NCBI GenBank assembly: GCA_022841445.1
Contig: JALHRM010000001.1
Span: 387,777 to 451,776, forward strand
Direction: 5' to 3'
DNA length: 64,000 nt
From: Candidatus Saccharimonadota bacterium
GTDB taxonomy: Bacteria > Patescibacteriota > Saccharimonadia > Saccharimonadales > UBA10212
The position numbers were made by a program, and so were the translations under genes. Shown here piece after piece: positions 3,111 through 64,000 of the stretch. Under the pieces are notes generated by a model. That model saw only the letters and a list, made by a program, of their open reading frames with translations. It was not told the DNA's origin and searched no databases. Positions within the stretch are counted from its first letter, which is position 1; each line of letters begins with the position of its first letter.

Positions 3111-3185
3111 TGGTGCCCCCGGACGGATTCGAACCGCCAGCTTCTCCTTAGGACGGAGTTGTTTTATCCATTGAACTACGGGGGC
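3111..3185 (-). tRNA. tRNA-Arg(CCT)
   Basis: The reverse complement GCCCCCGTAGTTCAATGG...CTCCGTCCTAAGGAG...GGTTCGAATCCGTCCGGGGGCACCA folds as a cloverleaf. The anticodon loop is GTCCTAA and CCA is encoded. Confidence 0.85.
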
Positions 3186-3325
3186 GCAATACAGCTGGTT
3201 AAAACTACCGATTTAATTTTATCGAGGTCTCCGCAAAATACCTATTTTGCGGAGTGGTTTGATAAGCTATGTAACGAAAAGTCACACATATAGAAGGGCA
3301 GCAAAATTAGTATATTTATAAGCAG

Positions 3326-3354
3326 TTTACTTCACTTCGCTTTGTGACTAGAAT
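3326..3354 (+). promoter_or_regulatory. sigma70-type promoter of the 3388 ORF
   Basis: TTTACT (3326-3331), a 17-nt spacer and TAGAAT (3349-3354). An AGGAG SD lies 8 nt before the ATG at 3388. Confidence 0.55.
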
Positions 3355-3387
3355 GAAAACAAATTAATTGATCAGGAGAAGAAATTT

Positions 3388-3753
3388 ATGGCCGAAGCAT
3401 TAGTCCCAGAAATTGAACGTAACATGGGAAGTTCTGTTATTCCTCCATCAGCAGAAGTAGTCAGCCATACTACTTTAAGCCAACTTGGTATCGGTGGAAC
3501 GGCAATGGGGAATATGCTAACTCAACCACTAACACCAGCAGAGGGTCTAGGCTTAAGTGTTGACGGCGATGATGCTGCAGAACCAGCCATTTTGGAAAGT
3601 GGGAGAACTGGTCGTAGAGGCCCTAGAGATTCAATGGGTGCATTAATAATTAGTGCTGACGACATCACTAGTGGTCCTAAGCAGGAACCTTTAACAACTT
3701 ACTATGTTGACAATAATGTCCCTAAAATGGTGAAACCTAGCGATCTTAACTAG
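3388..3753 (+). CDS. 121-aa protein, candidate graspetide (RiPP) precursor
   Basis: It has its own promoter and SD. It has no signal peptide or TM segment. The Thr/Asp/Lys-rich C-terminus is PLTTYYVDNNVPKMVKPSDLN. It lies 43 nt upstream of an ATP-grasp maturase-like gene. Confidence 0.5.
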   Translation: MAEALVPEIERNMGSSVIPPSAEVVSHTTLSQLGIGGTAMGNMLTQPLTPAEGLGLSVDGDDAAEPAILESGRTGRRGPRDSMGALIISADDITSGPKQEPLTTYYVDNNVPKMVKPSDLN

Positions 3754-3796
3754 TTAGTAAATTACTGCAACAAACAATCTTTAACGTATCTGGCGA

Positions 3797-4780
3797 ATGG
3801 CTCGTTCTACCAAAAGGCATATATTAATAGCGTCATCTGAATATGACAGGCGCACGGTTCTACCTGTGGTCGAAAAACTTAAAAAACAAGGCTGCCAAGT
3901 CACTTACTACAAAAGCGATCTTGTCACCATGCCCACCAAGAAACTCAACGTACAAGTTGGAGACTATACCGACTTAATCAGTTACGACGAAACTGACATA
4001 AACGGAATTAATGTAGACGCGGCCTGGTATCGACGGCCGTCTAATTTTGTATATGAGGGCTTAACAGAGATTCAGCAGGTGCAAGTGGCTGATAATGTCG
4101 ATCGTTTGCAAAGAGCCATATGGCAATCTATAGCCGAACACAAATGGATTAATGATCCTATGCGGATGAATTTTGCCGATGATAAATTCACCCAACTACG
4201 CCTTGCCAGTAAATTAGGATTCAAAGTACCAAAAACGGTCATTAGCAATGATGGTCAGGTGTTGCTAGAGGCTTTCCCAAAAGCTGATGCTGTCTTCAAG
4301 CTGCCAAGTGGTACGATCAGCATGAATGGTGAAGCAAGAGAAATTTACACTAATGTTTTGAGCCAGAAAAAACTTATTGATCTGGTTGAAACTGGCAAAA
4401 AACTACTGCCTGGCATATATCAGGAAAGAATCCCTAAGGCCAAAGAGTGGCGGATAACAGTTGTTGGTGAGCAGGTATTTCCGGCGGCTATTTATACTGA
4501 TGTCACCGCCAAAGATGATTGGCGTAAACTTCAAACTACCGATGCTGTGCGTTTCAAAAAAGAGCAATTTGATCAAGCTCTTACCGGCAAACTTGTCACT
4601 TTCTTGAAGAAATTAAATCTTCGATATGGTGCATTTGATCTGATTGAAGCACCAAACGGAGAAATATATTTTTTGGAAATTAATCCTAACGGCCAATACC
4701 AGTGGCTAGAAGACGAGCTAGGCATGCCTATATCGAGTGCGATTGCCGATGAATTGGCCCGCATTGCTAACGCCAATTGA
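3797..4780 (+). CDS. ATP-grasp enzyme resembling MvdC/MvdD (MdnB/MdnC)-type ribosomal-peptide maturases
   Basis: Motifs seen are KRHILIASSEYDRRTVLPVVEKL (pre-ATP-grasp), AAWYRRPSNF, KFTQLRLASKLGFKVPKTVISND and EINPNGQYQWLEDELGMPISSAIADEL. Confidence 0.7.
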   Translation: MARSTKRHILIASSEYDRRTVLPVVEKLKKQGCQVTYYKSDLVTMPTKKLNVQVGDYTDLISYDETDINGINVDAAWYRRPSNFVYEGLTEIQQVQVADNVDRLQRAIWQSIAEHKWINDPMRMNFADDKFTQLRLASKLGFKVPKTVISNDGQVLLEAFPKADAVFKLPSGTISMNGEAREIYTNVLSQKKLIDLVETGKKLLPGIYQERIPKAKEWRITVVGEQVFPAAIYTDVTAKDDWRKLQTTDAVRFKKEQFDQALTGKLVTFLKKLNLRYGAFDLIEAPNGEIYFLEINPNGQYQWLEDELGMPISSAIADELARIANAN

Positions 4781-4807
4781 TGGTATTGTTGGCTTAATCG
4801 AGTCTCT

Positions 4808-5395
4808 GTGCTACAAAGTGTTATTGCTTTTGCTATTTCACGAGGTTACGCTATAGCTATGTCCTCTCCGGAAACCCAAAAGTCAAAATACTTCAAAGAA
4901 CAGTTCGATGATGAAGAAGTGAAGTTGGTTTTTCGCAAGCATCCGGTCGTAATGCGTAAGGGAATCGTCTATGCTAGCCTCGGTTTGCTAGCCGGAACAA
5001 TCCCGGCAGTTTTTAATCCGACATTTACTATTTACTTTGGTGGCTTAGCGGTAGGACTGGTGCTATCAGCACTCATTATGTTGCCATTTTGGATACGTTG
5101 GTACTTTAGTGTTTATATACTAACCAACCAGCGATTTATCCAGCAAACTAAAAGCATGCTCCAGAGTAGCGTCGTCGATATTGGTCTCGACCAAATTCAG
5201 ATGATTAACTACCGAGTTTCTGGGTTTCAAGAAACACTGCTGGGATTTGGTACAATTGTCGTACAGACATTCGTTGGTGAGCTTACCATCCATGATGTGC
5301 ACCATCCGGCTAAGTTACAGAAAGAAATGGTGGGAATACTAAGAGATATCGGTGTGCATCCGGTACAAAGAATGTCGACCGAACAGAGCGAATAG
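4808..5395 (+). CDS. membrane protein with a bacterial PH (bPH_2, YdbS/YdbT-like) domain
   Basis: FRKHPVVMRKG is followed by two TM helices, then YILTNQRFIQ...GFGTIVVQT. The likely true start is the ATG at 4859 (MSSPETQ). Confidence 0.6.
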   Translation: MLQSVIAFAISRGYAIAMSSPETQKSKYFKEQFDDEEVKLVFRKHPVVMRKGIVYASLGLLAGTIPAVFNPTFTIYFGGLAVGLVLSALIMLPFWIRWYFSVYILTNQRFIQQTKSMLQSSVVDIGLDQIQMINYRVSGFQETLLGFGTIVVQTFVGELTIHDVHHPAKLQKEMVGILRDIGVHPVQRMSTEQSE

Positions 5396-5403
5396 CGATA
5401 ATT

Positions 5404-6468
5404 ATGAAAAAACTGAAACATTTAGCTAAACGAGGGAAAGAACTCAGCCCGCTTAAACCCAAAAACCAGGAAGTGGTGGCTGAAGAAAACTTACCCAGAA
5501 TCACTAATGAAACGGTAGCTAGTCACCGCGAAGAAGTTCTTCGTGGTGCCCGCAAGTTCATTTATCCGCTGCAGCATTCACGCCACCGAATTGTTCTGAT
5601 TACTTCGGCACTGGTTGTATCTGCGCTGGTGGGGCTGCTTATTTATAGTATCTTGGCACTGTATCGGTTTGGCCACGATAATACATTCCTCTACCGTGTC
5701 ACCCAGATTGTGCCGTTTCCTGTGGCTCGTTCTGGCGGGACTTTCGTTGAATACGAAAACTATCTTTTTGAACTGCGTCACTACAAACATTATTATGAAA
5801 ATCAGTTAGACAGTAATCTTGCCAGCGAGCAGTACAAGCAACAACTTGTGCAGTACCGCAAAGTTGCACTCGATCAAGTTATCAATCATGCTTTTGTCAA
5901 AGAACTCGCCAAGAAAAACAATGTGCAGGTCACTGATAAAGAAGTAAACGAGCGTATCGAACTACTCAGAAACCAAAACAGGCTTGGCAGTGGCGAAGAA
6001 GTTTTGGAAGATGTTCTGCGCGATTACTGGGGCTGGTCACTCAAGGACTTTGAGCGTGAACTGCGTGGTGAAATATTGGCAGAAAAGGTGGCATCCAAGC
6101 TCGACACAGCGACAGTTAAAAAGGCCAGCGATACTCTCGCCCAAATCAGGACTGGCAGTGACTTTACCGAACTCGCCAAAGCGGTATCCGATGATCCTGC
6201 CGCTAAAACCACCGGTGGGGAATATGGCTTTTTGATCGACCAGGGTAATCGGAATATTCCTCCACAAGTCGCGCGTGCACTATTTGCATTAAAACCAACA
6301 GAAGTTTCGGAAGTGATTAATACCGGTATCACACTCGAAATAGTGCGGCTGAACGAAAAGTCTGACGACAAAGTAAAGGCGTCGCATATTGTCTTTAATC
6401 TAAAAAATGCCGTCGAGTTTGTAAACGCCATGCCCGAGCGCCAAAAAGTAAAATCGTTTATCAAGTAG
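5404..6468 (+). CDS. membrane-anchored peptidyl-prolyl isomerase, PrsA/SurA-like parvulin
   Basis: It has an N-terminal TM segment (IVLITSALVVSALVGLLIYSILAL). A parvulin domain follows (FTELAKAVSDDPAAKTTGGEYGFL...ALKPTEVSEVINTGITLEIVRL). Confidence 0.7.
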   Translation: MKKLKHLAKRGKELSPLKPKNQEVVAEENLPRITNETVASHREEVLRGARKFIYPLQHSRHRIVLITSALVVSALVGLLIYSILALYRFGHDNTFLYRVTQIVPFPVARSGGTFVEYENYLFELRHYKHYYENQLDSNLASEQYKQQLVQYRKVALDQVINHAFVKELAKKNNVQVTDKEVNERIELLRNQNRLGSGEEVLEDVLRDYWGWSLKDFERELRGEILAEKVASKLDTATVKKASDTLAQIRTGSDFTELAKAVSDDPAAKTTGGEYGFLIDQGNRNIPPQVARALFALKPTEVSEVINTGITLEIVRLNEKSDDKVKASHIVFNLKNAVEFVNAMPERQKVKSFIK

Positions 6469-6549
6469 CGTAGTTACTTGCCATTACAGGGGTAAGCTGG
6501 TAGTATTGTCACTGTCTTAAATAACTTATTCTAAGACGTTATATAGTAA

Positions 6550-6833: not shown

Positions 6834-7373
6834 TTATTTCGGGGTGAACCTTAAGGCTTTTGGCGCCAATGTCATTAGAGCCAGGCTACCATCGCAAATC
6901 AATAGGTATATGGGCAGTGATGCAGCGAAAACTGACCATACAGAAATCGATAACAAACTACATATTGCGGCCAATGCGCACAGCACCCAATGAGCGGTAT
7001 TTTCAGTATGGGGGTAGAGGTATGTTTTCTTCAAAGTCGGGATATACCCACAAAATCCCGCGAATATATTAAAATATAGAGCCACTTCTGGGTTGCTAGT
7101 TACAATCCAGCCAACAACGCCTACTGCAGATGCTAAAAGACAAAAAATGTCTAACTTGCTCGCGCCTCCGACGCCCCTTTTTAGTGACATCAAGAAAATG
7201 ACCAAAGTCCCGATTGTATATGCGATTATTATTCCCGAGGCTTCTTTTCCGCCAGAGGCAATGTAACTCACAGACGCAATCACCCCTATTACCGTCCAAA
7301 TTCCAAATGTAGATCTATGGGGTTTAGTTTTTCCTTTTAATATTCCTTTGATATAGGGGTAGTAGGATAGCAA
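6834..7373 (-). CDS. polytopic membrane protein. The N-terminus is apparently separated by a frameshift in a T7 run.
   Basis: It has 5-6 hydrophobic helices. The long ORF starts only at a TTG (7373). A leaderless-type ATG at 7420 (MDEVRVF) is one frame off across 7398-7404. Confidence 0.55.
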   Translation of the reverse strand: MLSYYPYIKGILKGKTKPHRSTFGIWTVIGVIASVSYIASGGKEASGIIIAYTIGTLVIFLMSLKRGVGGASKLDIFCLLASAVGVVGWIVTSNPEVALYFNIFAGFCGYIPTLKKTYLYPHTENTAHWVLCALAAICSLLSISVWSVFAASLPIYLLICDGSLALMTLAPKALRFTPK

Positions 7374-7420
7374 AGCTAATAGCGTAGCTAGCAGTGCAAA
7401 AAAACTCTAACTTCATCCAT

Positions 7421-7433
7421 AATGTTAATTATA
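7421..7433 (-). promoter_or_regulatory. -10 box placed for a leaderless start at ATG 7420
   Basis: The minus strand reads TATAAT (7433-7428), then 7 nt (taacatt), then ATG (7420-7418). Confidence 0.5.
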
Positions 7434-7489
7434 ACTACTTGAACTTGATTATAATAATAGTCCCAGATATCTTCTGCTAAAAGCTTTTT

Positions 7490-7517
7490 TTGGCAGAGAC
7501 TAAGTATGCAATATAAT
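7490..7517 (+). promoter_or_regulatory. promoter giving a leaderless mRNA for the 7525 ORF
   Basis: TTGGCA (7490-7495), a 16-nt spacer, TATAAT (7512-7517), then 7 nt and ATG 7525. There is no SD. Confidence 0.55.
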
Positions 7518-7524
7518 AAACTAT

Positions 7525-7737
7525 ATGGATTCGACACCTCCAAGAGAAGAACCAGCTATAGCCTCAAGATTTGGTAGTCGTAGGGATGCTGCGCTTGCTG
7601 GGGTGTGCATAGGGATTCCTTTTGCGGCAGAAGTATTGCCTATACCGACCGAAGCTCGCCACACCTTGTTAGCCGTAGCTATAGGTGCTGGTGCAGTATT
7701 GATAAAACGTCTTTTTACCAGCCAAGAAGTTACATAA
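7525..7737 (+). CDS. small hypothetical membrane protein (70 aa)
   Basis: It has a leaderless-type promoter and two hydrophobic stretches (AALAGVCIGIPFAA, LLAVAIGAGAVLI). Confidence 0.45.
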   Translation: MDSTPPREEPAIASRFGSRRDAALAGVCIGIPFAAEVLPIPTEARHTLLAVAIGAGAVLIKRLFTSQEVT

Positions 7738-7847
7738 ATCTTTATATGAATGATCAGGTATTAGAACTATCCATGCGCGACTAGACACGGACTCCGTCCT
7801 GCGACTCTCTTTACAATAAGCCATAAATGTAATATAAAAATAACATT

Positions 7848-8384
7848 ATGTCAGTTCATAGTTTGCAAAAGCCCCCCGGCGGTATAGATATTCCAGAAGC
7901 CGAATTACCGATATTGGAGCTCGCGACGGATTTGATTAAGGTTCGGGATCGTTATCAGCTCGGGGCTGCTGCATTGGGAGTGGCGGGTGCATTAGGAATG
8001 GTGAGTAATCCAACGCTAAATCAGCCTCCCGAACTCGCAATATTCACACCAGATGGAGAATTGATCACAGCGTATGGTACTTTTCAGTGGCGCTGGTGCT
8101 TACAACTTAACATGGTATCCGGTAGGCCGGGAGTGAGATGGACGGATGTAATACAGCGTATTATTGATGGTCCGAGAGATGATGAAAGAGCAGAGCAATT
8201 AGCCGACATGCTCGCTGCTGGAGTTGACGGTACTTATGAAATTGAGTCGGGTAAACCACTGTCTGTACAAAAGCGAAAATTCCTATATTGCGGACTAGTC
8301 GCCCTTGCAGTTGCTCAGCGCGGTCATGGAAACGAACCAATCTGGCCGGAGGCGTTTGCGGGTCAAGCGGTAGGTGGACGATAA
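7848..8384 (+). CDS. hypothetical protein (178 aa)
   Basis: A long ORF with no competing frame. No motif was recognised. Confidence 0.5.
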   Translation: MSVHSLQKPPGGIDIPEAELPILELATDLIKVRDRYQLGAAALGVAGALGMVSNPTLNQPPELAIFTPDGELITAYGTFQWRWCLQLNMVSGRPGVRWTDVIQRIIDGPRDDERAEQLADMLAAGVDGTYEIESGKPLSVQKRKFLYCGLVALAVAQRGHGNEPIWPEAFAGQAVGGR

Positions 8385-8396
8385 ACCACAGGTGTT

Positions 8397-9251
8397 GTGT
8401 GGAAAATTTTTATTATGAGCGAAACCGATTTTTTTGATGTGCCTGTAAGTTCGATTCGATCTGGGCTAAAGACGGCGATGCATGCGTTTTGTAAATCCGG
8501 AGGTATTTCTGAGGCTGTGGCGGCTCAAAGTAACGAGATGACCAGAGCTGGCAGACCAGGGGCAATGCTGCTACAGGCCGGTAAATTCATCATCGATGCA
8601 ACACTTGCCGCTATGGACGCTGCCATTACTCCCAACCAACCACTCCCTGACGAAGTATATGCCAGGCGGCTTGCAGCGACGTATACCGTTGACGAAGTCG
8701 CTCAAACGGCTGCTGGCGATGGTTCATTAAATAAGCTTTTTGGCGGATTCCCAATGCTTGAGGGTTGCAGCCCCGCGCAGCGGATATATTTTATGCAAAG
8801 AATCGCTTTTGATTTGGCAACAATCGGTTCGGCTCCGATACAAGAAGTTAGTGTTGTAGCAGGCGGCGCAGTACGTATGCTACAGCGTGCCGGTGTTGAT
8901 GGTTCGGTAGAAGGCATTGTGTCTCGAAGCCATGGCTTATTAGATTCCGCCAAGCTACACAAGGATCTGGCTGCAAAAGTGTTTAGTGTACTTGGGACTC
9001 CCTATTTTTCAGATGAATGTTACAGGATTCTAGATCATCGTGACGGTGGAATAAAGGTTGATTTTAGCGAAGAAGTGAAAGCGGTTTTTGAAGCGAACAA
9101 AGGTCGGGGTTGCCCGGCAGGGGGTGTCAGGCTTGGGGATGGACACCCATCAACGCTACTGCATATGTACTGGGAAAGAATAAATGCTTTTCTATTCCAA
9201 CCCGGCCACACCACTGATTTGCCAATTACTACATTGCCCCATACAATCTAA
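8397..9251 (+). CDS. hypothetical protein (284 aa; start uncertain, GTG 8397 or ATG 8415)
   Basis: A long ORF following 7848-8384 on the same strand. No motif was recognised. Confidence 0.5.
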   Translation: MWKIFIMSETDFFDVPVSSIRSGLKTAMHAFCKSGGISEAVAAQSNEMTRAGRPGAMLLQAGKFIIDATLAAMDAAITPNQPLPDEVYARRLAATYTVDEVAQTAAGDGSLNKLFGGFPMLEGCSPAQRIYFMQRIAFDLATIGSAPIQEVSVVAGGAVRMLQRAGVDGSVEGIVSRSHGLLDSAKLHKDLAAKVFSVLGTPYFSDECYRILDHRDGGIKVDFSEEVKAVFEANKGRGCPAGGVRLGDGHPSTLLHMYWERINAFLFQPGHTTDLPITTLPHTI

Positions 9252-14861: not shown

Positions 14862-15989
14862 CTACGTCAGAAGTTCGATAAGTTTGTCGGCAGCTATGGC
14901 ATCTTTGACTTCGCGAGCAACTCGGCGTCCAACGCTCATGTTTTCGCCGTATAAATAACCTGAGTAGGGAGTAAACATTGTGCCTGGACTTCCGGGAATA
15001 CGCATGCTCACATCAAAAACTTTGAATTCTTCTTTAGGTGGACCAGCGCTGACAGCACCTTGGAGCGCAAATGGTCCGATGATTCCTGGCGGGTAGTGCT
15101 TTTGAGTGGCTGCTACAAATTTTTCACCGGCATCAAAGGCTTGTTCAAGTAGCGACTCTTTGATTGTGACCGACTGATGACCGTTTTCAATGTAACTTGG
15201 TCGGACGTATTTGAGAACTTCTTCTTGTTCGGGAGCAGTCAATCGCAATAAGCCATCGAGGTTGGTTTGACGGCGCGTGTCAGTACCAAGCAGTTCTAGT
15301 TCGCCGGTTAGTGGGGAATAGAAGAAGTTCAAGTTAAGCTGCGGTCCTAGTATGAATTCTTCGATCACGGCGATATCGAGCGACTGTTGGGTAATGGTGC
15401 CTGCGCTAACCATTTCTTGTGAGCGAATTTTGTATTCTTCGAAGCTATTTACCAAAAAGAATGCTCGTTCATATCCACGCGCGGCCTCACTTGCTTTGAC
15501 AATGACTAAGCGGTCAATGTCTTCAGGCTTTTCAAATTGCAGTGGAATCGAAAGTCCACCCTCCTGCAGTAAAAAGTACTGATTTCTCTCTTCATCACGT
15601 TCTTCTTTACGTACCAGTTCGCGGCTGCCGATGATTGGTACTAAAAAGTCGTTTTCAATCTCATCGAAGTTACAGTACACCCAAAAATAGCGACTATGTA
15701 CGAAGACAGCGTTTAAGTCTTGAAGCTGTTTTTGAATTTCGGGTTTTACGATGTCTCGAAAGTGGTCGACGTAAATAACATGGTCGACGCAACCACGGCC
15801 ATCGCGTGACTTAAAGTACTGGCTATAGGTTTTGTCGCGGCCTTTCTGGGCAACGATGACAGTTTCGAAACCTTCGGCTTTTGCTCCGCGAGCAACATCG
15901 AGTCCGCTATGGCCACCAAGGCTGGCGATACGAATGTTTTTAGGGTCATAACTTTTCAGAACTTTAGCAACATTATCACGTGAAATCAT
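14862..15989 (-). CDS. purP: PurP-family ATP-grasp (archaeal-type FAICAR synthetase-like), paralogue 2
   Basis: IASLGGHSGLDVARGAKAEGFETVIV, FYSPLTGELELLGTDTRRQTN, IGPFALQ and RIPGSPG align with M. jannaschii PurP as recalled. The start MISRDN at 15989 follows the upstream stop. Confidence 0.8.
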   Translation of the reverse strand: MISRDNVAKVLKSYDPKNIRIASLGGHSGLDVARGAKAEGFETVIVAQKGRDKTYSQYFKSRDGRGCVDHVIYVDHFRDIVKPEIQKQLQDLNAVFVHSRYFWVYCNFDEIENDFLVPIIGSRELVRKEERDEERNQYFLLQEGGLSIPLQFEKPEDIDRLVIVKASEAARGYERAFFLVNSFEEYKIRSQEMVSAGTITQQSLDIAVIEEFILGPQLNLNFFYSPLTGELELLGTDTRRQTNLDGLLRLTAPEQEEVLKYVRPSYIENGHQSVTIKESLLEQAFDAGEKFVAATQKHYPPGIIGPFALQGAVSAGPPKEEFKVFDVSMRIPGSPGTMFTPYSGYLYGENMSVGRRVAREVKDAIAADKLIELLT

Positions 15990-15990
15990 A

Positions 15991-16992
15991 TTAGTTGAAA
16001 ATCCTTTCCAGGGCGTTTTGTTCTTCAGCGAGGCGGATTTCCATGGCAATGCGCCGGCCAGTGCTCATCGGTTTGTTATAGCGTAGGTCGCTGTATGGTG
16101 AACCATGGATGTACGGGTTGGTGCCAGCCACGATACGAGCAGATATCTCGAAGACGAAGAAGTCTAAATCTGGAGTGACAATGGTTTCGAGACAGAATGG
16201 CCCAAACAATCCACGACTATCCCATTTTTTGGATGCGGCGATTACTTGCTCACCCATTTCAAAAATTTCCGGTAGCAGAGATTCACGGACAACAAGCGGA
16301 GTGTTACCCATGATGTTGTAGGACGTTTCGATGTTTAAGTCTAATTGGTCTTTGGCAGAAATTCGCCCGATAGAGTCAACATTACTCTCGTAACGACGGT
16401 CAAAACCCATCAGTTCCAGTTCTTCGGTGAGTGGGGAATAAAAGTAATGGATGTAAACTGGCGCACCGACAATATATTCTTGGATGATGTATTTTTGGTC
16501 AGGGTGTTGTTTGATTTTTTCTTCAAATTCTTTTTGATTATGTGCCAAGAAGTAACCTTTGCCACCCTGAGCGCCATAGAATTTGATGATTACTGACGTA
16601 TCGATATCAGATGGTTTCTCAAAGATTCTTGGTAATTTTAGTCCTGCCTCTGCGAGCCACTGCCGCTGTTTTTTGCGGTCGGTTTCCCAGGCGAGTACTT
16701 TCTTATTGCCAAAATATGGGGTTTTGAGTTCGTCAATCTCAGCTAGGCTAAATGCGTTAACAAAAGAAGCATGCGGAATCAGCACAGCATTCATAGCGGC
16801 TAGTTCATCGTCACGGTCTTTAGCGTCAGCAAACTTATCGACGGCGATTATATGATCAGCAACCCGAAAAGATTCGTAGGGTTTGAGTCGTTTCTTTTCA
16901 GCAATCAAAACAGTCTCAAAACCTTCATCCCGACCACCCTTCAAGATTTGCAGCGCGCTATGACTCCCCAACGTACAAATTTTGTGTTTCAC
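15991..16992 (-). CDS. purP: PurP-family ATP-grasp (archaeal-type FAICAR synthetase-like), paralogue 1
   Basis: ICTLGSHSALQILKGGRDEGFETVLI, IHYFYSPLTEELELMGFDRRYESNVD, VVRESLLPEIFEMGE, FGPFCLE and FEISARIVAGTN are present. The GTG at 16992 has a GAGAGGTG SD. Confidence 0.85.
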   Translation of the reverse strand: MKHKICTLGSHSALQILKGGRDEGFETVLIAEKKRLKPYESFRVADHIIAVDKFADAKDRDDELAAMNAVLIPHASFVNAFSLAEIDELKTPYFGNKKVLAWETDRKKQRQWLAEAGLKLPRIFEKPSDIDTSVIIKFYGAQGGKGYFLAHNQKEFEEKIKQHPDQKYIIQEYIVGAPVYIHYFYSPLTEELELMGFDRRYESNVDSIGRISAKDQLDLNIETSYNIMGNTPLVVRESLLPEIFEMGEQVIAASKKWDSRGLFGPFCLETIVTPDLDFFVFEISARIVAGTNPYIHGSPYSDLRYNKPMSTGRRIAMEIRLAEEQNALERIFN

Positions 16993-17118
16993 TTTGAACA
17001 CCTCTCATTTAAGAAGTTATATTGCTACTAAGTATACCAGTAAAACTATATTAACAGAGACAAAAATTAATGGTTGGCTCATTCTTGGCAATAATTTTGT
17101 TAGAATGGGTCTTGATGT

Positions 17119-17935: not shown

Positions 17936-18919
17936 ATGAAAATCATTCATGCGCCGGAATCACCTATGCCAGAACCATACAAAACCTACGTTGCACAGCG
18001 TGCCGAAAATATTGCGGCCGTATTGGGAAGCATTAGGGCGCTACAGACCGAACAAGACATGCAGCTTTGTTCTCGGGCAATCACTCCAGATGAAGTTTTG
18101 GTGGATGGGGATGTGTATGGTTGTGTTGTCGGCGATACGAACGCTGGCTATAAGTCTGTATTGTACAAATCCAATAACTCAGGTATCGCTACACATTCTG
18201 CCGAAGATGCGCTTCGCTATGTCGAAGCATCGCTGCATATGGGCAATAGGGTAAGGATGAAAGATCCGCGGGAGTCAGATGGTATGGGGCAAAGTGTCGT
18301 AGAAACTTGCGAACAGGCCGAAGCAGTTCTTGAGGCGTTCGATGCACTTAGCACGACTGGTATCGTACTCATGCCGCATATTGCACGTATTACTGACCGG
18401 TTGAGTTTTGGGCGCATCAATCTTGAAGGTGCAGGTTCATTCCAATACGTTGGCCGGGAAGAAGTGCTGCGCCGAAACGGAGGTGAACTATTTGCTGGCG
18501 CCGATATTGCTCTTAGTCGAGGGGATAGTTTGCATGTTGAACGCGCCATGCGTCAGCTACACATAGAGCCCCGCGCTCTGGAGGTGGCAGAAAGAGCAAT
18601 AGCGCGTTTCAAAACTCATGCGATACGCAGCGGACGGGTGAGTGTTGATGTACTTTCCGGTTACACAGACAGCGGCAAAAAAATTACGGCTGCTGTAGAT
18701 GTAACACCGAGGGTAGGTGGCAATACGCCGGCCGAAGTACTGGCCATCAGCGCATTGATGGCCTATCGCTCTGGAATCGCCTATGCATCGGGCCGGTTAG
18801 TCTACGACCCACGGTCCGCCTCACGACCTGAAGATGCAACTACCTTTGTCGACACCGATACGCTGCTCATCCATGCTAGAGTTCAATCATTAGAGGAGTG
18901 CGACCGAGATGCAGACTAA
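17936..18919 (+). CDS. hypothetical protein (327 aa)
   Basis: A long ORF whose 3' end overlaps the next gene by 11 nt, suggesting translational coupling. Confidence 0.5.
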   Translation: MKIIHAPESPMPEPYKTYVAQRAENIAAVLGSIRALQTEQDMQLCSRAITPDEVLVDGDVYGCVVGDTNAGYKSVLYKSNNSGIATHSAEDALRYVEASLHMGNRVRMKDPRESDGMGQSVVETCEQAEAVLEAFDALSTTGIVLMPHIARITDRLSFGRINLEGAGSFQYVGREEVLRRNGGELFAGADIALSRGDSLHVERAMRQLHIEPRALEVAERAIARFKTHAIRSGRVSVDVLSGYTDSGKKITAAVDVTPRVGGNTPAEVLAISALMAYRSGIAYASGRLVYDPRSASRPEDATTFVDTDTLLIHARVQSLEECDRDAD

Positions 18920-36032: not shown

Positions 36033-36416
36033 GGGCACAGGGTTGCTGGCTGGCTGCTTCTTAATTTATTAGGGAGAGGAAAGTCCGGGCAGCGTAGGGC
36101 ATGGCAGTTGTTAACGGCAACCGGGGGAAACCCTAGGGAAAGTGCCACAGAGACGACACAGCCACAGGCGTTATTGCGCCTTGGCGATAGGTGAAATGAG
36201 TGGGGTAAGAGCCCACAGCCGGTTACGGTGACGTAATCGGGAGGTAAACCCTGCCTGCTGCAAGGAGACGGATTTACAACTTTTAGTAGTTGTGGTGCCC
36301 GCCAGATCCGTCGTTATAGAACCGCGTGAGTCTGTTGGCAACAGCAGACCTAGATAGATGGTCAGCGTCTTGGTTTCCAAGATACAGAACCCGGCTTATA
36401 GGCAACCCGGTGCACT
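36033..36416 (+). ncRNA. rnpB: RNase P RNA (bacterial type A)
   Basis: GAGGAAAGTCCGGGC and ACAGAACCCGGCTTA form the P4 strands. P1 is GCACAGGGTTGC / GCAACCCGGTGC. A TACAAT -10 lies at 36023. Confidence 0.85.
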
Positions 36417-50569: not shown

Positions 50570-52169
<1,600 letters not shown>

Positions 52170-52439: not shown

Positions 52440-55400
52440 ATGCTTAAGCGCTTAGCGCGTCGGTCTAAAGACGCCAGCAAAAACAATAAAGCGACCAAGA
52501 AACCGGCTATTAAAAATCAGCTTTCTTATGAAGAGGCTAAAGCCCGCAAGTTATTCCATAGCACGCCGGTTTGGGTTAGTGTCGTTGTGGTGCTACTTTT
52601 TAGTTCGTTCACTCTGTATAAAATAGCTGAAAATATTGGATCATCAGAAGCGGCTATACTCTTCAATGCTGATTATGAAAATGGTACTCAAACACCGCCT
52701 TGGGGCGGAGGGCAGTGTATAGCATCTTGGAGTTGTACGGTGTCTACTAACGCACCGCGGGAAGGTCGCTACTCGGCACGCTATGAAGTACGGGATGGTG
52801 ACTGTCCGGTAACGGGAGACAGGTGCTATGGTGAGCGCGCCGAAAGGCAGGGTGGTAGTGCGCCGAGTAGTGCTGAGGGGCAAGACCGCTGGTACAAATG
52901 GAGTATGAAGCTGGAAAACGGCTTTCCTAACAGTTCCGGCTGGCAGATACTTGGCCAGTGGCATTCCACCGGCAATGGACCTCCACCAGTAGAAATGAAC
53001 CTTTCTGGTCGTAATATCATGTTGCAAATAAACAAAGCTCGATTTGCTGGTGACACTAATCCTCCGGCGACTTTCCCTTGGCAGTACACTCTGCAGACTG
53101 GTCAGTGGTATGACTTCAAGTTCCATATTAAGTGGTCGGCTGGCGGGGCTGGGTTAGTCGAAGTCTGGGTGAACGGTCAAAAGCGTCCTACGTATACAGG
53201 TGCGACACTGCGGCCAAATGAAGGAACTTACTTTAAGCAGGGCTACTACCGTTGTACTTGTGTTAATGGAACAGGAATCGTTTACTACGATAATGTTCGA
53301 GCAACAACTACTGAGGCAGAACTTGGGGCAGGCGCGAGCACTCCAAGCCCCACTCCCACCCCAACACCGACTCCAACGCCTAGCCCCACCCCCACCCCAA
53401 CACAGCCATCCGACAGAGTGACTGTCGAAACTGCCCTAAGGAGTTTGACTGTACCGTGGGCGATGGAATTTACAAAAGACGGGCGGTATATGTACTTTAC
53501 GGAGCGGCCTGGACGCATCCGGGTTGCTGAACGGGGGGCGAACGGACAGCTAACGTTGAAACCCACTATCGCGACAGTCCCGGTAGGAAGTTCCGGTAAC
53601 GAAGAAGGCTTGCAGGGCATAGCACTTGACCCTAACTTTGCCAGTAACGGCTACCTCTACGTATATTATTCGATTAACACATCAAGCGGGAAGGGTAATC
53701 GCCTGGCTCGCTACACCGTGAATCAGTCGAATTTTACGGCCGGCTCACCAGTGACGCTGATTGATAATATCCCTGGCTACCAGTTCCATGATGGCGGACG
53801 CATTAAGTTTGGGCCTGATGGCTACCTCTATGTTGCGACGGGTGATGCTTCTGATAATGGCAGCCAAAACAGCCGTATCGCTCAAAATCTAGACTCACTA
53901 GGGGGTAAAATCTTGCGTATCCGGCCAACACCTGGCAACCTCACTCCGCTAGATAATCCATTCGGTACCACCGGCAATCGGTCGTTAGTATGGAGCTATG
54001 GTCACCGTAACCCTCAGGGTCTGGCCTGGAACCCGGTCAATAATGAAATGTGGGCAACGGAGCATGGACCAACTGGTACACCATGCTGTACTGACGAGGT
54101 TAATCGCATCGTGAAAGGTGGTAACTACGGCTGGCCAAAATTCTATGGAACTAACTCAAATTCTAATTTCTCGACTCAGTTCACCAATCTCACTTTGTCC
54201 AACACTATCGCTCCAGTTCGGTCTAGCGGTTCAGGAATTTGGGCTCCCGGTGGAGCCACTTTCTATGCAGGCAATCAGCTTACGGGGAATTGGAAGAATA
54301 GCCTGATGTTCACAGGTCTTGGTATTCAGGGGCGCACTGGTGCGCGGGCGTTATACAGGCTTAACTTAAATACCGATCAGCGTACGGTTCGTAGTATTGA
54401 AGAACTTTATAAGAACCAGTTTGGCCGAATACGTGACGTTATCCAAGCACCTGATGGGTCACTGTATCTGGCGACCAGTAACCGTGATGGACGGGGGAGT
54501 CCAACTAGCGATGATGACAGGATTATACGGCTAAAACCGGATGCTGTTATCCAAACTCCGACCCCGACACCTACGCCGACTCCCGTTCCAACTCCTACTC
54601 CCACGCCTCCAGCTCCGACCCCGACACCTACGCCGACTCCAGTCCCCATTCCACCGCAGAAACCACCGGTATCTATTCCTAAAGTGTTCCTTTCTACCAC
54701 TGCTGCCTCGGTGAATGTCGGACAATCTGTCAATTTATCATGGACTTCTACCGATAGTCCTACTAGCTGCAGGGCTTCTGGAGATTGGACTGGTACTAAA
54801 TCAGTTTCTGGTTCTCAAGCAACCGGAGCGCTTACTAACGTAAAAACGTACACCTACACAATTACCTGCAGCAATACAGCCGGAACAGCGAGCGCTTCGC
54901 GGTCAGTTATCGTCATACCAAGCAAACCGGTAGTTACATTACGCAGTTCATCTAGTTCTGTTACAGTCGGTCAATCCGTTAATTTATCATGGACTGCCAC
55001 TAATAACCCTACAAGTTGTACGGCCACAGGTGACTGGAGCGGCGTAAGGGCGGGTAACGGCGCACAGTCTAGCGGCGCACTAATAGCCGCGCGCGCTCAC
55101 ACATATACGATTACTTGCGTAAATGCGGGGGGCACAGGCAGCGCAGCGCTCTCTGTAAATGCTCGCGCAGTCGGTATCGCTACACCAACCATCCAAAAAC
55201 CAACCGTTAAATTGACGGCGACTCCAACTACGCTAAACAGTGGTCAAAAATCAATCCTGCAGTGGTCTACAGGTAATAATCCGTCTTCTTGTACAGCATC
55301 TGGTGATTGGAGCGGCACAAAATCTACCTCCAACGGCAGTCAGGGAACTGGCGCACTTACTTCTGGAAAAACGTATACCTTAACATGTACTAACGCCGGA

Positions 55401-55811
55401 GGCAGTACATCGGCATCAACATCGGTGTCTATAGTAGCTATTGCTGATAATGGAGCGGTAACCGTTAATGAGACTCCCGTACCGGGCTTAAGTGCACTAA
55501 GTCCTGCCCAGGTGAGCGACTCTGACCAGTCGACAATATCCGATAGTATTGAGCAGTACGGCGGTGATGCGGTAACAGAGGGCAGCCTCGAAGGAGAATC
55601 AAAGCAGAGTGGTTCCGCTATAAAGACGGTTGCCGTAACAGGTAGTATCTTATTGGCGCTCTCAGCCGCGGCAGTGGCATTTCTGGCGCTTCGCGCTAGA
55701 ATGGGCAGCCGTATGATGTCAGACAGCATTGTCACCGGTAATCATCAGGAAGTAGTCTACCCCGAAAATCAGAACATCGACGTGTTTGGTAATACCCACG
55801 ATAAAAAATAG
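52440..55811 (+). CDS. membrane-anchored multidomain exoprotein: lyase-type jelly-roll domain, PQQ-type sugar dehydrogenase beta-propeller and 3 Ig-like repeats
   Basis: It starts with an N-terminal TM segment. The jelly-roll domain shows YSARYEVRDGD...RWYKWSM...GQWH..GPPPVEMNL and is followed by a PT linker. The sorbosone/glucose dehydrogenase motifs are GLQGIALDPNF, FHDGGRIKFGPDGYLYV, GHRNPQGLAW and GGNYGWP. A second PT linker precedes three repeats of about 100 aa (VGQSVNLSWT...SC.A.GDW.G...YT.TC.N..G). The protein ends in a C-terminal TM segment. Confidence 0.75.
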   Translation: MLKRLARRSKDASKNNKATKKPAIKNQLSYEEAKARKLFHSTPVWVSVVVVLLFSSFTLYKIAENIGSSEAAILFNADYENGTQTPPWGGGQCIASWSCTVSTNAPREGRYSARYEVRDGDCPVTGDRCYGERAERQGGSAPSSAEGQDRWYKWSMKLENGFPNSSGWQILGQWHSTGNGPPPVEMNLSGRNIMLQINKARFAGDTNPPATFPWQYTLQTGQWYDFKFHIKWSAGGAGLVEVWVNGQKRPTYTGATLRPNEGTYFKQGYYRCTCVNGTGIVYYDNVRATTTEAELGAGASTPSPTPTPTPTPTPSPTPTPTQPSDRVTVETALRSLTVPWAMEFTKDGRYMYFTERPGRIRVAERGANGQLTLKPTIATVPVGSSGNEEGLQGIALDPNFASNGYLYVYYSINTSSGKGNRLARYTVNQSNFTAGSPVTLIDNIPGYQFHDGGRIKFGPDGYLYVATGDASDNGSQNSRIAQNLDSLGGKILRIRPTPGNLTPLDNPFGTTGNRSLVWSYGHRNPQGLAWNPVNNEMWATEHGPTGTPCCTDEVNRIVKGGNYGWPKFYGTNSNSNFSTQFTNLTLSNTIAPVRSSGSGIWAPGGATFYAGNQLTGNWKNSLMFTGLGIQGRTGARALYRLNLNTDQRTVRSIEELYKNQFGRIRDVIQAPDGSLYLATSNRDGRGSPTSDDDRIIRLKPDAVIQTPTPTPTPTPVPTPTPTPPAPTPTPTPTPVPIPPQKPPVSIPKVFLSTTAASVNVGQSVNLSWTSTDSPTSCRASGDWTGTKSVSGSQATGALTNVKTYTYTITCSNTAGTASASRSVIVIPSKPVVTLRSSSSSVTVGQSVNLSWTATNNPTSCTATGDWSGVRAGNGAQSSGALIAARAHTYTITCVNAGGTGSAALSVNARAVGIATPTIQKPTVKLTATPTTLNSGQKSILQWSTGNNPSSCTASGDWSGTKSTSNGSQGTGALTSGKTYTLTCTNAGGSTSASTSVSIVAIADNGAVTVNETPVPGLSALSPAQVSDSDQSTISDSIEQYGGDAVTEGSLEGESKQSGSAIKTVAVTGSILLALSAAAVAFLALRARMGSRMMSDSIVTGNHQEVVYPENQNIDVFGNTHDKK

Positions 55812-57624: not shown

Positions 57625-57701
57625 TGGTGGGGTTACCAGGACTCGAACCTGGGACCTCGTCATTATCAGTGACGCGCTCTAACCAGCTGAGCTATAACCC
57701 C
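57625..57701 (-). tRNA. tRNA-Ile(GAT)
   Basis: The reverse complement is GGGGTTATAGCTCAGCTGGTTAGAGCGCGTCACTGATAATGACGAGGTCCCAGGTTCGAGTCCTGGTAACCCCACCA. Confidence 0.9.
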
Positions 57702-57753
57702 TTATATATTCATGTTGTTAATAGTTTGTTTAAAATTGCCTGGAGGCAATTTC

Positions 57754-57791
57754 CAGTGACGCGAGGGAGCTAGCTGAGCTACAGTCCCTCG
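57754..57791 (-). pseudogene. degenerate copy of the tRNA-Ile 5' half
   Basis: The reverse complement CGAGGGACTGTAGCTCAGCTAGCTCCCTCGCGTCACTG shares TAGCTCAGCT and CGCGTCACTG with tRNA-Ile at the same 8-nt spacing. Confidence 0.5.
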
Positions 57792-57901
57792 TCAGACTTT
57801 ATGCCCCTGTCTCGTTTTGCCTTTTGGCAAAAGCTTCGACTTATGGCATGAGTCTTCCTCTCAAAATTGCAAATTAGAAATTCACAATTTTGGTATTGTT
57901 G

Positions 57902-57978
57902 TGGTGGAGCAACGGGGACTCGAACCCCGGACCCCCTGCTTGCAAAGCAGGTGCTCTAGCCAACTGAGCTATTGCCCC
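57902..57978 (-). tRNA. tRNA-Ala(TGC)
   Basis: The reverse complement is GGGGCAATAGCTCAGTTGGCTAGAGCACCTGCTTTGCAAGCAGGGGGTCCGGGGTTCGAGTCCCCGTTGCTCCACCA. Confidence 0.9.
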
Positions 57979-62707: not shown

Positions 62708-64000
62708 TAAAAAGTTACTCAAGCGCACACAATGAATGCCTTGACGTAAGACACCGACGAAGGACGTGATTGGCTGCGAAAAGCCACGGGGAGCTGCCGA
62801 ATAAGCTTTGAACCGTGGATGTCCGAATGGGGAAACCTCACTAGAGTCATATCTGGTGGCACTTGTCTGAATATATAGGACGAGAACGCGGTAACCGGGG
62901 GAACTGAAACATCTTAGTACCTCGAGGAAGAGAAAATAACCAATGATTCCGGGAGTAGTGGCGAGCGAAACTGGATCAGCCCAAACCTTAACCATTTCCT
63001 TCTGGCAATTTGCCGGATAGGATAAGTTGGTAGACGAAAATGTTTAAGGGGTTGTGACATACAAAAAACCAGTTCAGAGTTCTAAACTTGTTTTAGAAAT
63101 CTGAACTGCTGCAGGAACTACCAATGTCCTGCGTAAGGTTCGATAAAATTGCAATGCGAGCAGAACAGTCTGGAAAGACTGGCCATAGACAGTGAAAGCC
63201 TGGTATGCCAAGTGTTGCAAACCTTATTATTTGTATTGTCGAGTAGGTCGGGACACGAGAAATCCTGACTGAATCTGGGGGGACCACCCTCCAAGGCTAA
63301 ATATGTCTTACGATCGATAGTGTACAAGTACCGTGAGGGAAAGGTTAAAAGAACCCCGTAAGGGGAGTGAAATAGATCCTGAAATTATGTGCGTACAAGG
63401 AGTCGGAGCCCTTCGGGGTGACGGCGTGCTTTTTGTAGAACGATCCAGCGAGTTACTAGCATTCGCAAGCTTAAGCCATTTGGCGGAGGCGTAGTGAAAG
63501 CGAGCCTGAATAGGGCGATTAGTGGATGTTAGTAGACCCGAAACCGGGTGACCTAACCATGGGCAGGCTGAAGCGTCAGTAAAATGACGTGGAGGGCCGA
63601 ACCGTAGCATATTGCAAAATGCCCGGATGACCTGTGGTTAGCGGTGAAATGCCAATCGAACTCGGAGATAGCTGGTTCTCCTCGAAATAGCTTTAGGGCT
63701 AGCGTCGCGTGGTAACAAGTAGGGGTAGAGCTCTGTTTCGGACTGGGGGTCGCAAGATTACCCACCCCTGACAAACTACGAATACTACTTGCGGAATCGC
63801 GGCAGTTAGAACGTCGGGGCTAAGCTCGGCGCTCGAAAGGGAAACAGCCCAGACCATCATCTAAGGTCCCTAAATATATGCTCAGTGGGAAACGAGGTGA
63901 GATTTCTTAAACAATGAGGATGTTGGCTTAGAAGCAGCCATTCATTTAAAGAGTGCGTAACAGCTCACTCATCAAGAGATCTTGCGCGGAAAATGTAACG
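62708..64000 (+). rRNA. rrl: 23S ribosomal RNA, 5' 1.3 kb (continues past the window)
   Basis: AAGTTACTCAAGCGCACACAATGAATGCCTTGACG...GACGAAGGACGTG...TCCGAATGGGGAAACC...GGGGGAACTGAAACATCTTAGTA...AGTACCGTGAGGGAAAGG. Confidence 0.95.

Follow-up and report, generated by a model that had tools for sequence, protein, structure and literature searches.

A putative two-gene graspetide module at a lineage-specific indel of a Saccharimonadia genome

Does a bacterium of the candidate phyla radiation (CPR) carry, in two adjacent genes, a ribosomal peptide together with the ligase that closes rings in it? This question is raised by a segment near the beginning of a 64,000-nt stretch of contig JALHRM010000001.1 from a Candidatus Saccharimonadota bacterium (the whole analysed stretch is called the window hereafter), in which an open reading frame (ORF) of 121 amino acids (aa) is followed, 43 nt downstream, by the gene of an ATP-grasp enzyme. 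An earlier note, made from the sequence alone, had read this pair as a candidate module for a graspetide, that is, a peptide made by the ribosome and modified after its translation (RiPP), cyclised through its side chains, and the ORF, promoter boxes, AGGAG, intergenic gap and enzyme motifs that it had described are all present in the sequence. It had also considered RiPP chemistry unexpected in a CPR organism, a view that does not hold since graspetide clusters have already been described there (PMC8939145; PMC13097080). Our analysis leads us, with moderate confidence, to regard the segment (Table 1) as a minimal two-gene graspetide cassette in which the 121-aa product is the substrate of the ligase and is cyclised as proposed below.

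The 327-aa protein encoded by the second gene is almost certainly an ATP-grasp ligase of the graspetide-synthetase superfamily, as judged by profile, structure and motif comparisons. Against the NCBIfam models it obtained 182 bits with MvdC (E = 1.3e-53), 181 with SAV_5884, 157 with MvdD and 83 with grasp-with-spasm, as opposed to 51 (50.9) with the RimK family and 26 with LysX, so that the maturase models exceed RimK by 106-131 bits. Maturase profiles set against RimK and GshB thus speak clearly for a ribosomal-peptide maturase, which bears out the earlier call of such an enzyme rather than a RimK or Ddl protein. The scores stay far under the curated subfamily cut-offs (182 versus 425 for MvdC, TIGR04185; 157 versus 475 for MvdD, TIGR04184; 181 versus 350 for SAV_5884, TIGR04187) and, therefore, the protein is a member of the superfamily and not an orthologue of MvdC, MvdD or SAV_5884. 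The RimK score is also below its cut-off (50.9 versus 143.4 bits, TIGR00768), and the Pfam model of the MvdD pre-ATP-grasp domain (PF21068) is passed with 28.9 bits at a cut-off of 27. At the structural level, the significant relatives retrieved from the PDB by phmmer were all graspetide macrocyclases (MdnB, with 7.9e-33, AMdnB, CdnC, MdnC, PruB and PsnB). An AlphaFold2 model of the enzyme built on 56 homologues (predicted local distance difference test 94.7, predicted template-modelling score (pTM) 0.91) agrees with this: in a Foldseek search of the PDB, ranks 1-31 were taken by MdnC, CdnC, AMdnB, MdnB, PruB and PsnB with TM-scores of 0.62-0.84, and RimK structures appeared from rank 32 onward at 13-16% identity (~14%).

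The motifs HILIASSEYD, AAWYRRPSNF and LEINPNGQYQWLEDELGMPIS turned out to be the most conserved blocks among the homologues. Residues D241, W242, K168, E294 and N296 are invariant in the 56 homologues and R243 is kept in at least 90% of them; E294-x-N296 constitutes the Mg/ATP motif, and the DWR triplet aligns with the DWR of MdnB. A 'DFR' motif, the equivalent of DWR, has been called critical by Carter et al. 2026 (PMC13097080). All residues that never vary within the clade, those of the DWR motif among them, are retained in the window enzyme. The enzyme departs from the clade at 6 of 73 clade-conserved positions, a number within the range of the other members, and hence does not look degenerate. 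No second graspetide ligase was found elsewhere in the window. The stretches 14862-17001 (minus strand) and 17936-18919 (plus strand) hold two tandem DUF1246/DUF1297 genes with a DUF3182 gene nearby. DUF1246/DUF1297 proteins are the ATP-grasp enzymes of the PurP type, which belong to purine synthesis in its archaeal style; these proteins and the DUF3182 protein are unrelated to the graspetide ligase.

Where does the module begin and end? The answer was provided by blastn comparison of the window with its relative L091, in which positions 3780-3854 of L091 correspond to 3111-3185 of the window and positions 3923-5594 to 4851-6523, so that 68 nt in L091 stand at the same place as 1,665 nt in the window. 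The segment is bounded by the 5' end of the tRNA-Arg(CCT) gene and by the start of a bPH_2 gene. Its flanks are 81-84% identical to L091 at the nucleotide level, the tRNA-Arg is 94.7% identical to the L091 copy, and a tRNA-Arg(CCT) is found at the equivalent syntenic spot in both L091 and L096. Downstream of bPH_2, the gene of a peptidyl-prolyl isomerase (PPIase; 5404-6468) has a homologue, P0122, with 95% identity. The contigs that carry P0122 show, in this order, a XerC-like integrase (minus strand), NDK (plus), a 240-aa gene (minus), tRNA-Arg(CCT) (minus), a 178-aa bPH_2-like gene (plus) and the PPIase (plus), and their tRNA-Arg/bPH_2/PPIase interval contains neither the small ORF nor the ATP-grasp gene. 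The same synteny without the module is also observed in two remoter relatives (PPIase identity 61% and 55%), and among the genes listed for L091-L095, L096 and the P0133 contig there is no ATP-grasp gene. As three relatives of decreasing similarity lack both genes, an insertion in the lineage of the window is the more parsimonious reading of the indel.

The 121-aa ORF and the ligase gene are present or absent together, as one unit, and since the indel holds exactly two genes, the module consists of the orphan ORF and the ligase only. The bPH_2 and PPIase genes are conserved housekeeping neighbours that lie outside it; the bPH_2 protein, presented in the earlier note as the neighbour of the module, is likewise kept in relatives that do not have the module. 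The GC content of the inserted segment is 41.4%, compared with 46.1% for the window, and the GC content at third codon positions is 0.29 in the ORF, 0.40 in the ligase gene and 0.45-0.48 in the neighbours. Direct repeats and integration scars were looked for at the boundaries of the segment and none were found.

Table 1. Coordinates of the module, of its signals and of related features (window positions unless a sister locus is named)
Feature	Position	Strand	Basis or remark
ATP-grasp module segment (lineage-specific indel, 1,665 nt)	3186..4850	+	blastn of window against relative L091
tRNA-Arg(CCT)	3111..3185	-	ARAGORN; Rfam 55 bits; left boundary marker, outside module
Perfect 12-bp inverted repeat, CTCCGCAAAATA TA TATTTTGCGGAG	3229..3254	.	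repeat search, 100% complementary
Promoter-like TTTACT (3326-3331)-17-TAGAAT (3349-3354)	3326..3354	+	consensus scan, 9/12; 33 nt before ORF start
Shine-Dalgarno AGGAG	~3373..3377	+	read in sequence; ~10 nt 5' of ATG 3388
Orphan 121-aa gene, candidate graspetide precursor	3388..3753	+	codon statistics, AGGAG, ATG start
Predicted graspetide-type ATP-grasp macrocyclase, 327 aa	3797..4780	+	MvdD-type pre-ATP-grasp domain, D241-W242-R243
RNase P RNA, bacterial class A	36038-36414		241.6 bits
tRNAs near sister modules	L009 3305-3379; L017 3384-3458; L019 4999-5075; L021 2918-2994; L036 5045-5131
Sister precursors, examples	L014 3731-3937; L012 3080-3274; L090 949-1161

The relatives of the enzyme tell what such a gene usually stands next to. 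About 300 homologues were found at 36-46% identity, the named ones belonging to Candidatus Saccharimonadales or Patescibacteria, and an alignment-based scan of species-representative genomes retrieved 29 loci (36-44% identity), nearly all of them in Saccharimonadia metagenome-assembled genomes. Next after this clade, Kitasatospora, cyanobacteria, Nannocystis and others contribute ligases of ~30% identity. The window enzyme is 37-46% identical to the clade members versus ~30% to the others, and a neighbour-joining tree places it within the Saccharimonadia clade on a long branch, with the L001 enzyme (46% identity) as its closest relative. Given this clade and the thousands of Saccharimonadia homologues of the flanking PPIase, the CPR/Saccharibacteria assignment of the window is sound.

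The loci of the clade (L001-L036, L088 and L090) adopt two layouts, precursor-ligase and precursor-DUF6624-ligase, with DUF6624 in about half of them. Of 34 sister loci, at least 30 have a precursor-like small ORF upstream of the enzyme gene, on the same strand: in 19 it is an ORF of 47-93 aa directly upstream, and another 11 have a DUF6624 protein (~200 aa) directly upstream with the small ORF before it. The leaders of most sister precursors contain a common heptad (TVFEKLA, TLFERLA, TVLEALA) that in many cases follows G-(K/R)-(I/T), which gives the clade motif the form G(K/R)(I/T)TV(L/F)E(A/K)LA. Their cores are variable and acidic, as in (L/V)TRLxDGQT(V/I)PDE(R), STxxxxVDFEDD and TGWDSGTGIDTDPNQD; the first two are examples of core types that recur in the clade. 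From 18 of these precursors a leader profile hidden Markov model (HMM) and a position-weight model were built, and ten motif-bearing loci outside the model-defining set scored 14-33 bits with the leader model. A relaxed heptad, T-[TVILA]-[LFV]-x-x-[LIF]-[AGS], is found in 25 of 30 clade precursors, between residues 11 and 53. The sister loci lie in neighbourhoods that all differ from one another, which suggests that the distribution of the module is patchy and mobile. With respect to the surroundings of these modules, a tRNA gene lies at most ~300 nt from the module boundary in the window and in 5 of 34 sister modules. This adjacency reaches p ~0.001 at an assumed tRNA spacing of ~22 kb and is not significant at the density of the window (8 tRNAs per 64 kb), so it may hint at tRNA-adjacent insertion of the modules with a significance that depends on the tRNA density assumed.

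What, then, is the small ORF of the window? Its coding score is 0.354 bits per codon, while equally long pieces of the long genes of the window average 0.227; the score lies above 94% of these real-gene pieces and is reached by none of 28 out-of-frame shadow ORFs. Both halves of the ORF score alike in codon usage and the other five frames are negative. The 121-aa ORF is a real gene. Its product is predicted to be non-globular or disordered since a model of it alone (pTM 0.14) shows almost nothing but coil and, at residues 106-113, a small hairpin; this is a single-sequence prediction and hence weak evidence. Strong coding statistics and predicted disorder both count in favor of a precursor, and so does the position of the ORF upstream of the ligase gene, which is that of the precursor in the great majority of the sister loci described above. 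As regards the conservation of the pair, to which the earlier note had given importance, a small upstream ORF is a recurrent trait of the clade, whereas the 121-aa ORF itself is conserved nowhere.

Two patterns within the ORF point in the same direction, although both were framed after seeing the sequence and are leads rather than tests, which has to be counted against the substrate assignment. The relaxed heptad has a single match, TTLSQLG at residues 28-34, where ~0.02 matches are expected per 121 aa (shuffle p 0.02), and this match sits at the typical distance from the N-terminus. The C-terminus of the protein, ...PLTTYYVDNNVPKMVKPSDLN, offers five donors (T103, T104, K113, K116 and S118) and two acceptors (D108 and D119). 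It contains the arrangement donor-x3-acid, 2-8 residues, donor-x2-acid (T104...D108...K116...D119), which is found in 1.9% of random 21-mers and echoes the commonest sister core, T-x3-D-x2-T-x2-D.

A larger group of observations also weighs against the 121-aa product as the substrate. No homologue beyond the ORF itself was detected in a word-indexed library of 5.8 billion proteins, in an exhaustive phmmer search of 1.84 billion representatives or, by phmmer and blastp, among the small ORFs of 85 ATP-grasp loci; consequently, what ties it to the enzyme is one insertion event. The protein has no Pfam or NCBIfam match either. The leader position-weight model gives the ORF 0.5 bits versus 13-38 for the seeds (shuffle p = 0.59), the leader profile HMM shows no signal in it, and Ser occupies the heptad position at which 24 of the 25 matching precursors have Glu or Asp. 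The earlier note had described the tail as dense in donors and acceptors, a claim that the numbers contradict: the last 21 residues have a T/S/K/D/E fraction of 0.33 versus a background of 0.30, a value reached by 44% of random 21-mers of window proteins, and only two of these residues are acidic. With 121 aa, the ORF is longer than every sister precursor (47-93 aa). DUF6624 is missing as well, the best tblastn hit of five DUF6624 queries against the whole window having E = 0.8 and the neighbouring genes showing no Pfam match to PF20329. Finally, family scans of the neighbours found no GNAT, protease or exporter adjoining the two genes, just as the earlier note had stated, and the lack of a nearby protease or exporter adds to the points on this side. 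The negative leader score is softened by the fact that the model misses divergent true members: in leave-one-out scoring, the divergent seeds L001, L004 and L011 obtained -1.5, -2.2 and 2.4 bits, respectively. The upstream ORF of L088 obtained 8.4 bits, and the L001, L004 and L088 enzymes are among those most similar to the enzyme of the window (39-46% identity).

These observations feed a different explanation, in which the enzyme is a genuine graspetide synthetase whose substrate is something other than the 121-aa product. The ORF would then be a co-inserted unrelated orphan or an accessory, chaperone-like small protein, and the enzyme would have its peptide encoded in another place or would itself be an orphan in the course of being lost. 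The missing homologues, the lack of a significant match to the clade leader model, the unenriched tail and the unusual length all fit this scenario, and there are precedents for it, as Makarova et al. 2022 (PMC8939145) report CPR loci without a findable adjacent precursor and, for other clades, small 'LPL' proteins that go with ATP-grasp genes without being precursors. On the other hand, no other six-frame ORF of the 64-kb window bears the leader motif (best score 11.4 bits versus 13-38 for the seeds). At least 30 of the 34 sister loci have a precursor in the upstream position on the same strand, either by itself or together with DUF6624. Moreover, the two genes were gained or lost together, the enzyme bears no sign of decay and the relaxed heptad stands at the expected place in the ORF. 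We regard a non-substrate ORF as rather unlikely, yet as the main rival of the substrate reading.

Two further explanations call one of the genes itself into question. The enzyme might be a ligase of the RimK, LysX or GshB type, with a protein or a metabolite to which it attaches amino acids. RimK (23.2 bits in Pfam, 51 bits in NCBIfam), LysX and MptN give weak matches, some databases name its homologues 'glutathione synthase/RimK-type ligase-like', and it remains under the curated cut-offs of MvdC, MvdD and SAV_5884. Against this stand the lead of 106-131 bits of the maturase models over RimK, the MvdD-type pre-domain, the solved relatives and fold matches, which are graspetide macrocyclases at 24-28% identity versus 14% for RimK, and a clade that is consistently tied to leader-plus-core peptides; a RimK-type activity is accordingly very improbable. 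Hardly more credible is that the 121-aa ORF is not a gene at all and that the enzyme stands alone behind a long 5' untranslated region. The absence of homologues and of Pfam or NCBIfam matches, together with the low-confidence structure prediction, would be expected in that case, but a coding score above 94% of real-gene pieces and above all 28 shadow ORFs would not, nor would the equal scores of both halves with five negative frames, nor an AGGAG at the right distance from an ATG start.

In the two-gene cassette that we favor, the 121-aa product would be the substrate of the ligase. Its N-terminal leader, possibly through a helix-prone stretch around T28-TLSQLG (~residues 26-36), would dock on the ligase, which would use ATP to phosphorylate Asp side-chain carboxylates in the C-terminal core and convert them into acyl-phosphates. 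Thr and Lys side chains would then attack the activated Asp residues to form macrolactone and macrolactam rings. By analogy with the sister cores (T-x3-D ... T-x2-D), the likeliest ring pairs would be a T104-D108 ester and a K116-D119 amide. Because the cassette includes no genes for these steps, leader removal and export would rely on genes elsewhere. A bolder version of this proposal seems to us rather doubtful as a whole: the 121-aa orphan would represent a new, DUF6624-independent class of precursors, with TTLSQLG as a non-acidic variant of the leader and a mixed bicycle made of a T104-D108 lactone and a K116-D119 lactam, carried on a mobile cassette that lands near tRNA genes, passes between Saccharibacteria, is diversified by them and serves them against hosts or rival epibionts.

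Several signals in and around the module concern its expression. The earlier note had assigned the ORF its own promoter. The string is indeed present, but 10 promoter-like sites with 9 of 12 matches were seen in the 4-kb region versus 8.0 +/- 2.5 in shuffles; as this count does not exceed the shuffles, the promoter is supported by its position alone. The perfect inverted repeat lies within the inserted segment, past the tRNA-Arg gene and 72 nt 5' of the -35 box, has a 2-nt loop and could be an insulating terminator or an operator. At the other end, the bPH_2 gene has probably been annotated with a wrong start (GTG 4808), and the true one would be ATG 4859, which yields 178 aa as in the relatives. 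When window 4808-4870 is set beside L091 3880-3935, L091 has a TATAAT-like box just 5' of the bPH_2 ATG and the window has GTTACG in its place. No terminator-like site was found 3' of the ligase gene. The absence of the TATAAT-like box together with that of a terminator opens the possibility of read-through, and the bPH_2-PPIase pair may now be read through from the promoter of the inserted module.

How does this locus compare with known graspetide systems? The microviridin pathway comprises the MdnA precursor, the MdnC/MvdD ester ligase, the MdnB/MvdC amide ligase and the MdnD GNAT. The window enzyme shares fold and domain layout with MdnB and MdnC at 24-26% identity, and the ATP-dependent cyclisation of side chains is presumably the same. 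The candidate precursor also has a P-S-D near its C-terminus, but the likeness is superficial: the earlier note had compared its KPSD with the microviridin K-x-P-S-D, yet there is no residue between K and P and the acidic pair after PSD is missing, the tail reading ...VPKMVKPSDLN and not TxKxPSDx(D/E)(D/E). In addition, the ORF lacks the PFFARFL leader, and the locus has one ligase instead of two and no adjacent GNAT. A microviridin identity was therefore rejected on sequence, on account of leader, core, ligase number and GNAT. Plesiocin (PsnA/PsnB) and prunipeptin (PruB) are closer in architecture, with a precursor and a single ATP-grasp enzyme; their enzymes match the fold of the window ligase, and the short Thr-to-Asp/Glu spacings of the core would give small or hairpin-like rings in both cases. 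However, the identity to PsnB and PruB is only 19-24%, the candidate core is unrepeated, the leader motif is another one and the ring connectivity of the window peptide is a proposed one. The rosaritide system (MirA/MirB plus the SurA-like MirC; Carter et al. 2026, PMC13097080) resembles the window in that the second gene downstream of the ATP-grasp gene codes for a SurA_N plus parvulin protein. In contrast to MirC, the window PPIase is a housekeeping protein kept with bPH_2 in relatives without the ATP-grasp gene, and in family scans it matches generic PrsA/SurA/PpiC-type isomerase models only; both synteny and these scans led us to reject bPH_2 and PPIase as parts of the module or as a MirC-like partner.

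The closest counterparts are the clusters predicted in other CPR bacteria. The CPR graspetide loci described by Makarova et al. 2022 (PMC8939145) comprise ATP-grasp branches 1 and 2, with precursors that are hypervariable and a 'cluster 23' protein that goes with them. Carter et al. 2026 (PMC13097080) defined a graspetide group 42 of 22 clusters, 82% with DUF6624, with a Ca. Komeilibacteria representative. The Saccharimonadia clade, with ~300 library proteins and 29 species-level genomes, is much larger than those 22 clusters; likened by the published descriptions, it probably overlaps group 42 and branches 1/2. The published precursor core of group 42, HGTPNDPDSGGTD, resembles the L001 core, NGTPTNDSDSGD. 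Like these clusters, the window combines a graspetide-type ATP-grasp enzyme of a CPR bacterium with a small upstream ORF in the place of their hypervariable precursors, and is minimal, without a dedicated protease or exporter. Unlike them, it has no DUF6624 ('cluster 23'-like) gene, its candidate precursor is a 121-aa orphan that matches no other and has Ser for the leader Glu/Asp, and no other sequence is more than 46% identical to its enzyme. The locus is very probably a new, rather divergent member of the already predicted CPR graspetide modules.

Some other features of the window deserve description. The 16S and 23S rRNA genes are unlinked (50570-52169 and 62708-64000), the 23S starting ~10.5 kb after the 16S. 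Between them lie protein genes, including one for a 1,123-aa polysaccharide-lyase/GSDH fusion (52440-55811), as well as tRNA-Ile(GAT) and tRNA-Ala(TGC) on the opposite strand (57625-57978, minus). A second variable spot is located right after tRNA-Asp (window 6834-9251, L091 5969-8422), where three genes without Pfam match in the window stand opposite a Polysacc_lyase_14 protein and a 100-aa ORF in L091; the gene order agrees again from a 190-aa gene and a signal-peptidase S26 gene onward.

Graspetide clusters in the CPR were predicted in 2022 and catalogued again in 2026, and none has yet been made or characterised. As the general idea has already been published from bioinformatic surveys, the gain offered by the present locus is incremental and not conceptual. 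Its value lies in being about the simplest test case, with one peptide gene, one enzyme, no additional DUF6624 protein and clean boundaries set by a module-free relative. If the 121-aa product is indeed the substrate, expression of the pair could give the first CPR graspetide, and the locus could show whether the enzyme tolerates a leader unlike that of its clade. The picture obtained for this clade, with a shared heptad, variable cores and an optional DUF6624, supplies positive controls that are ready for use. The capacity of Saccharibacteria, which are ultrasmall epibionts, for biosynthesis is very small and, for this reason, any modified peptide that they secrete would be a candidate for dealing with their hosts or competitors.

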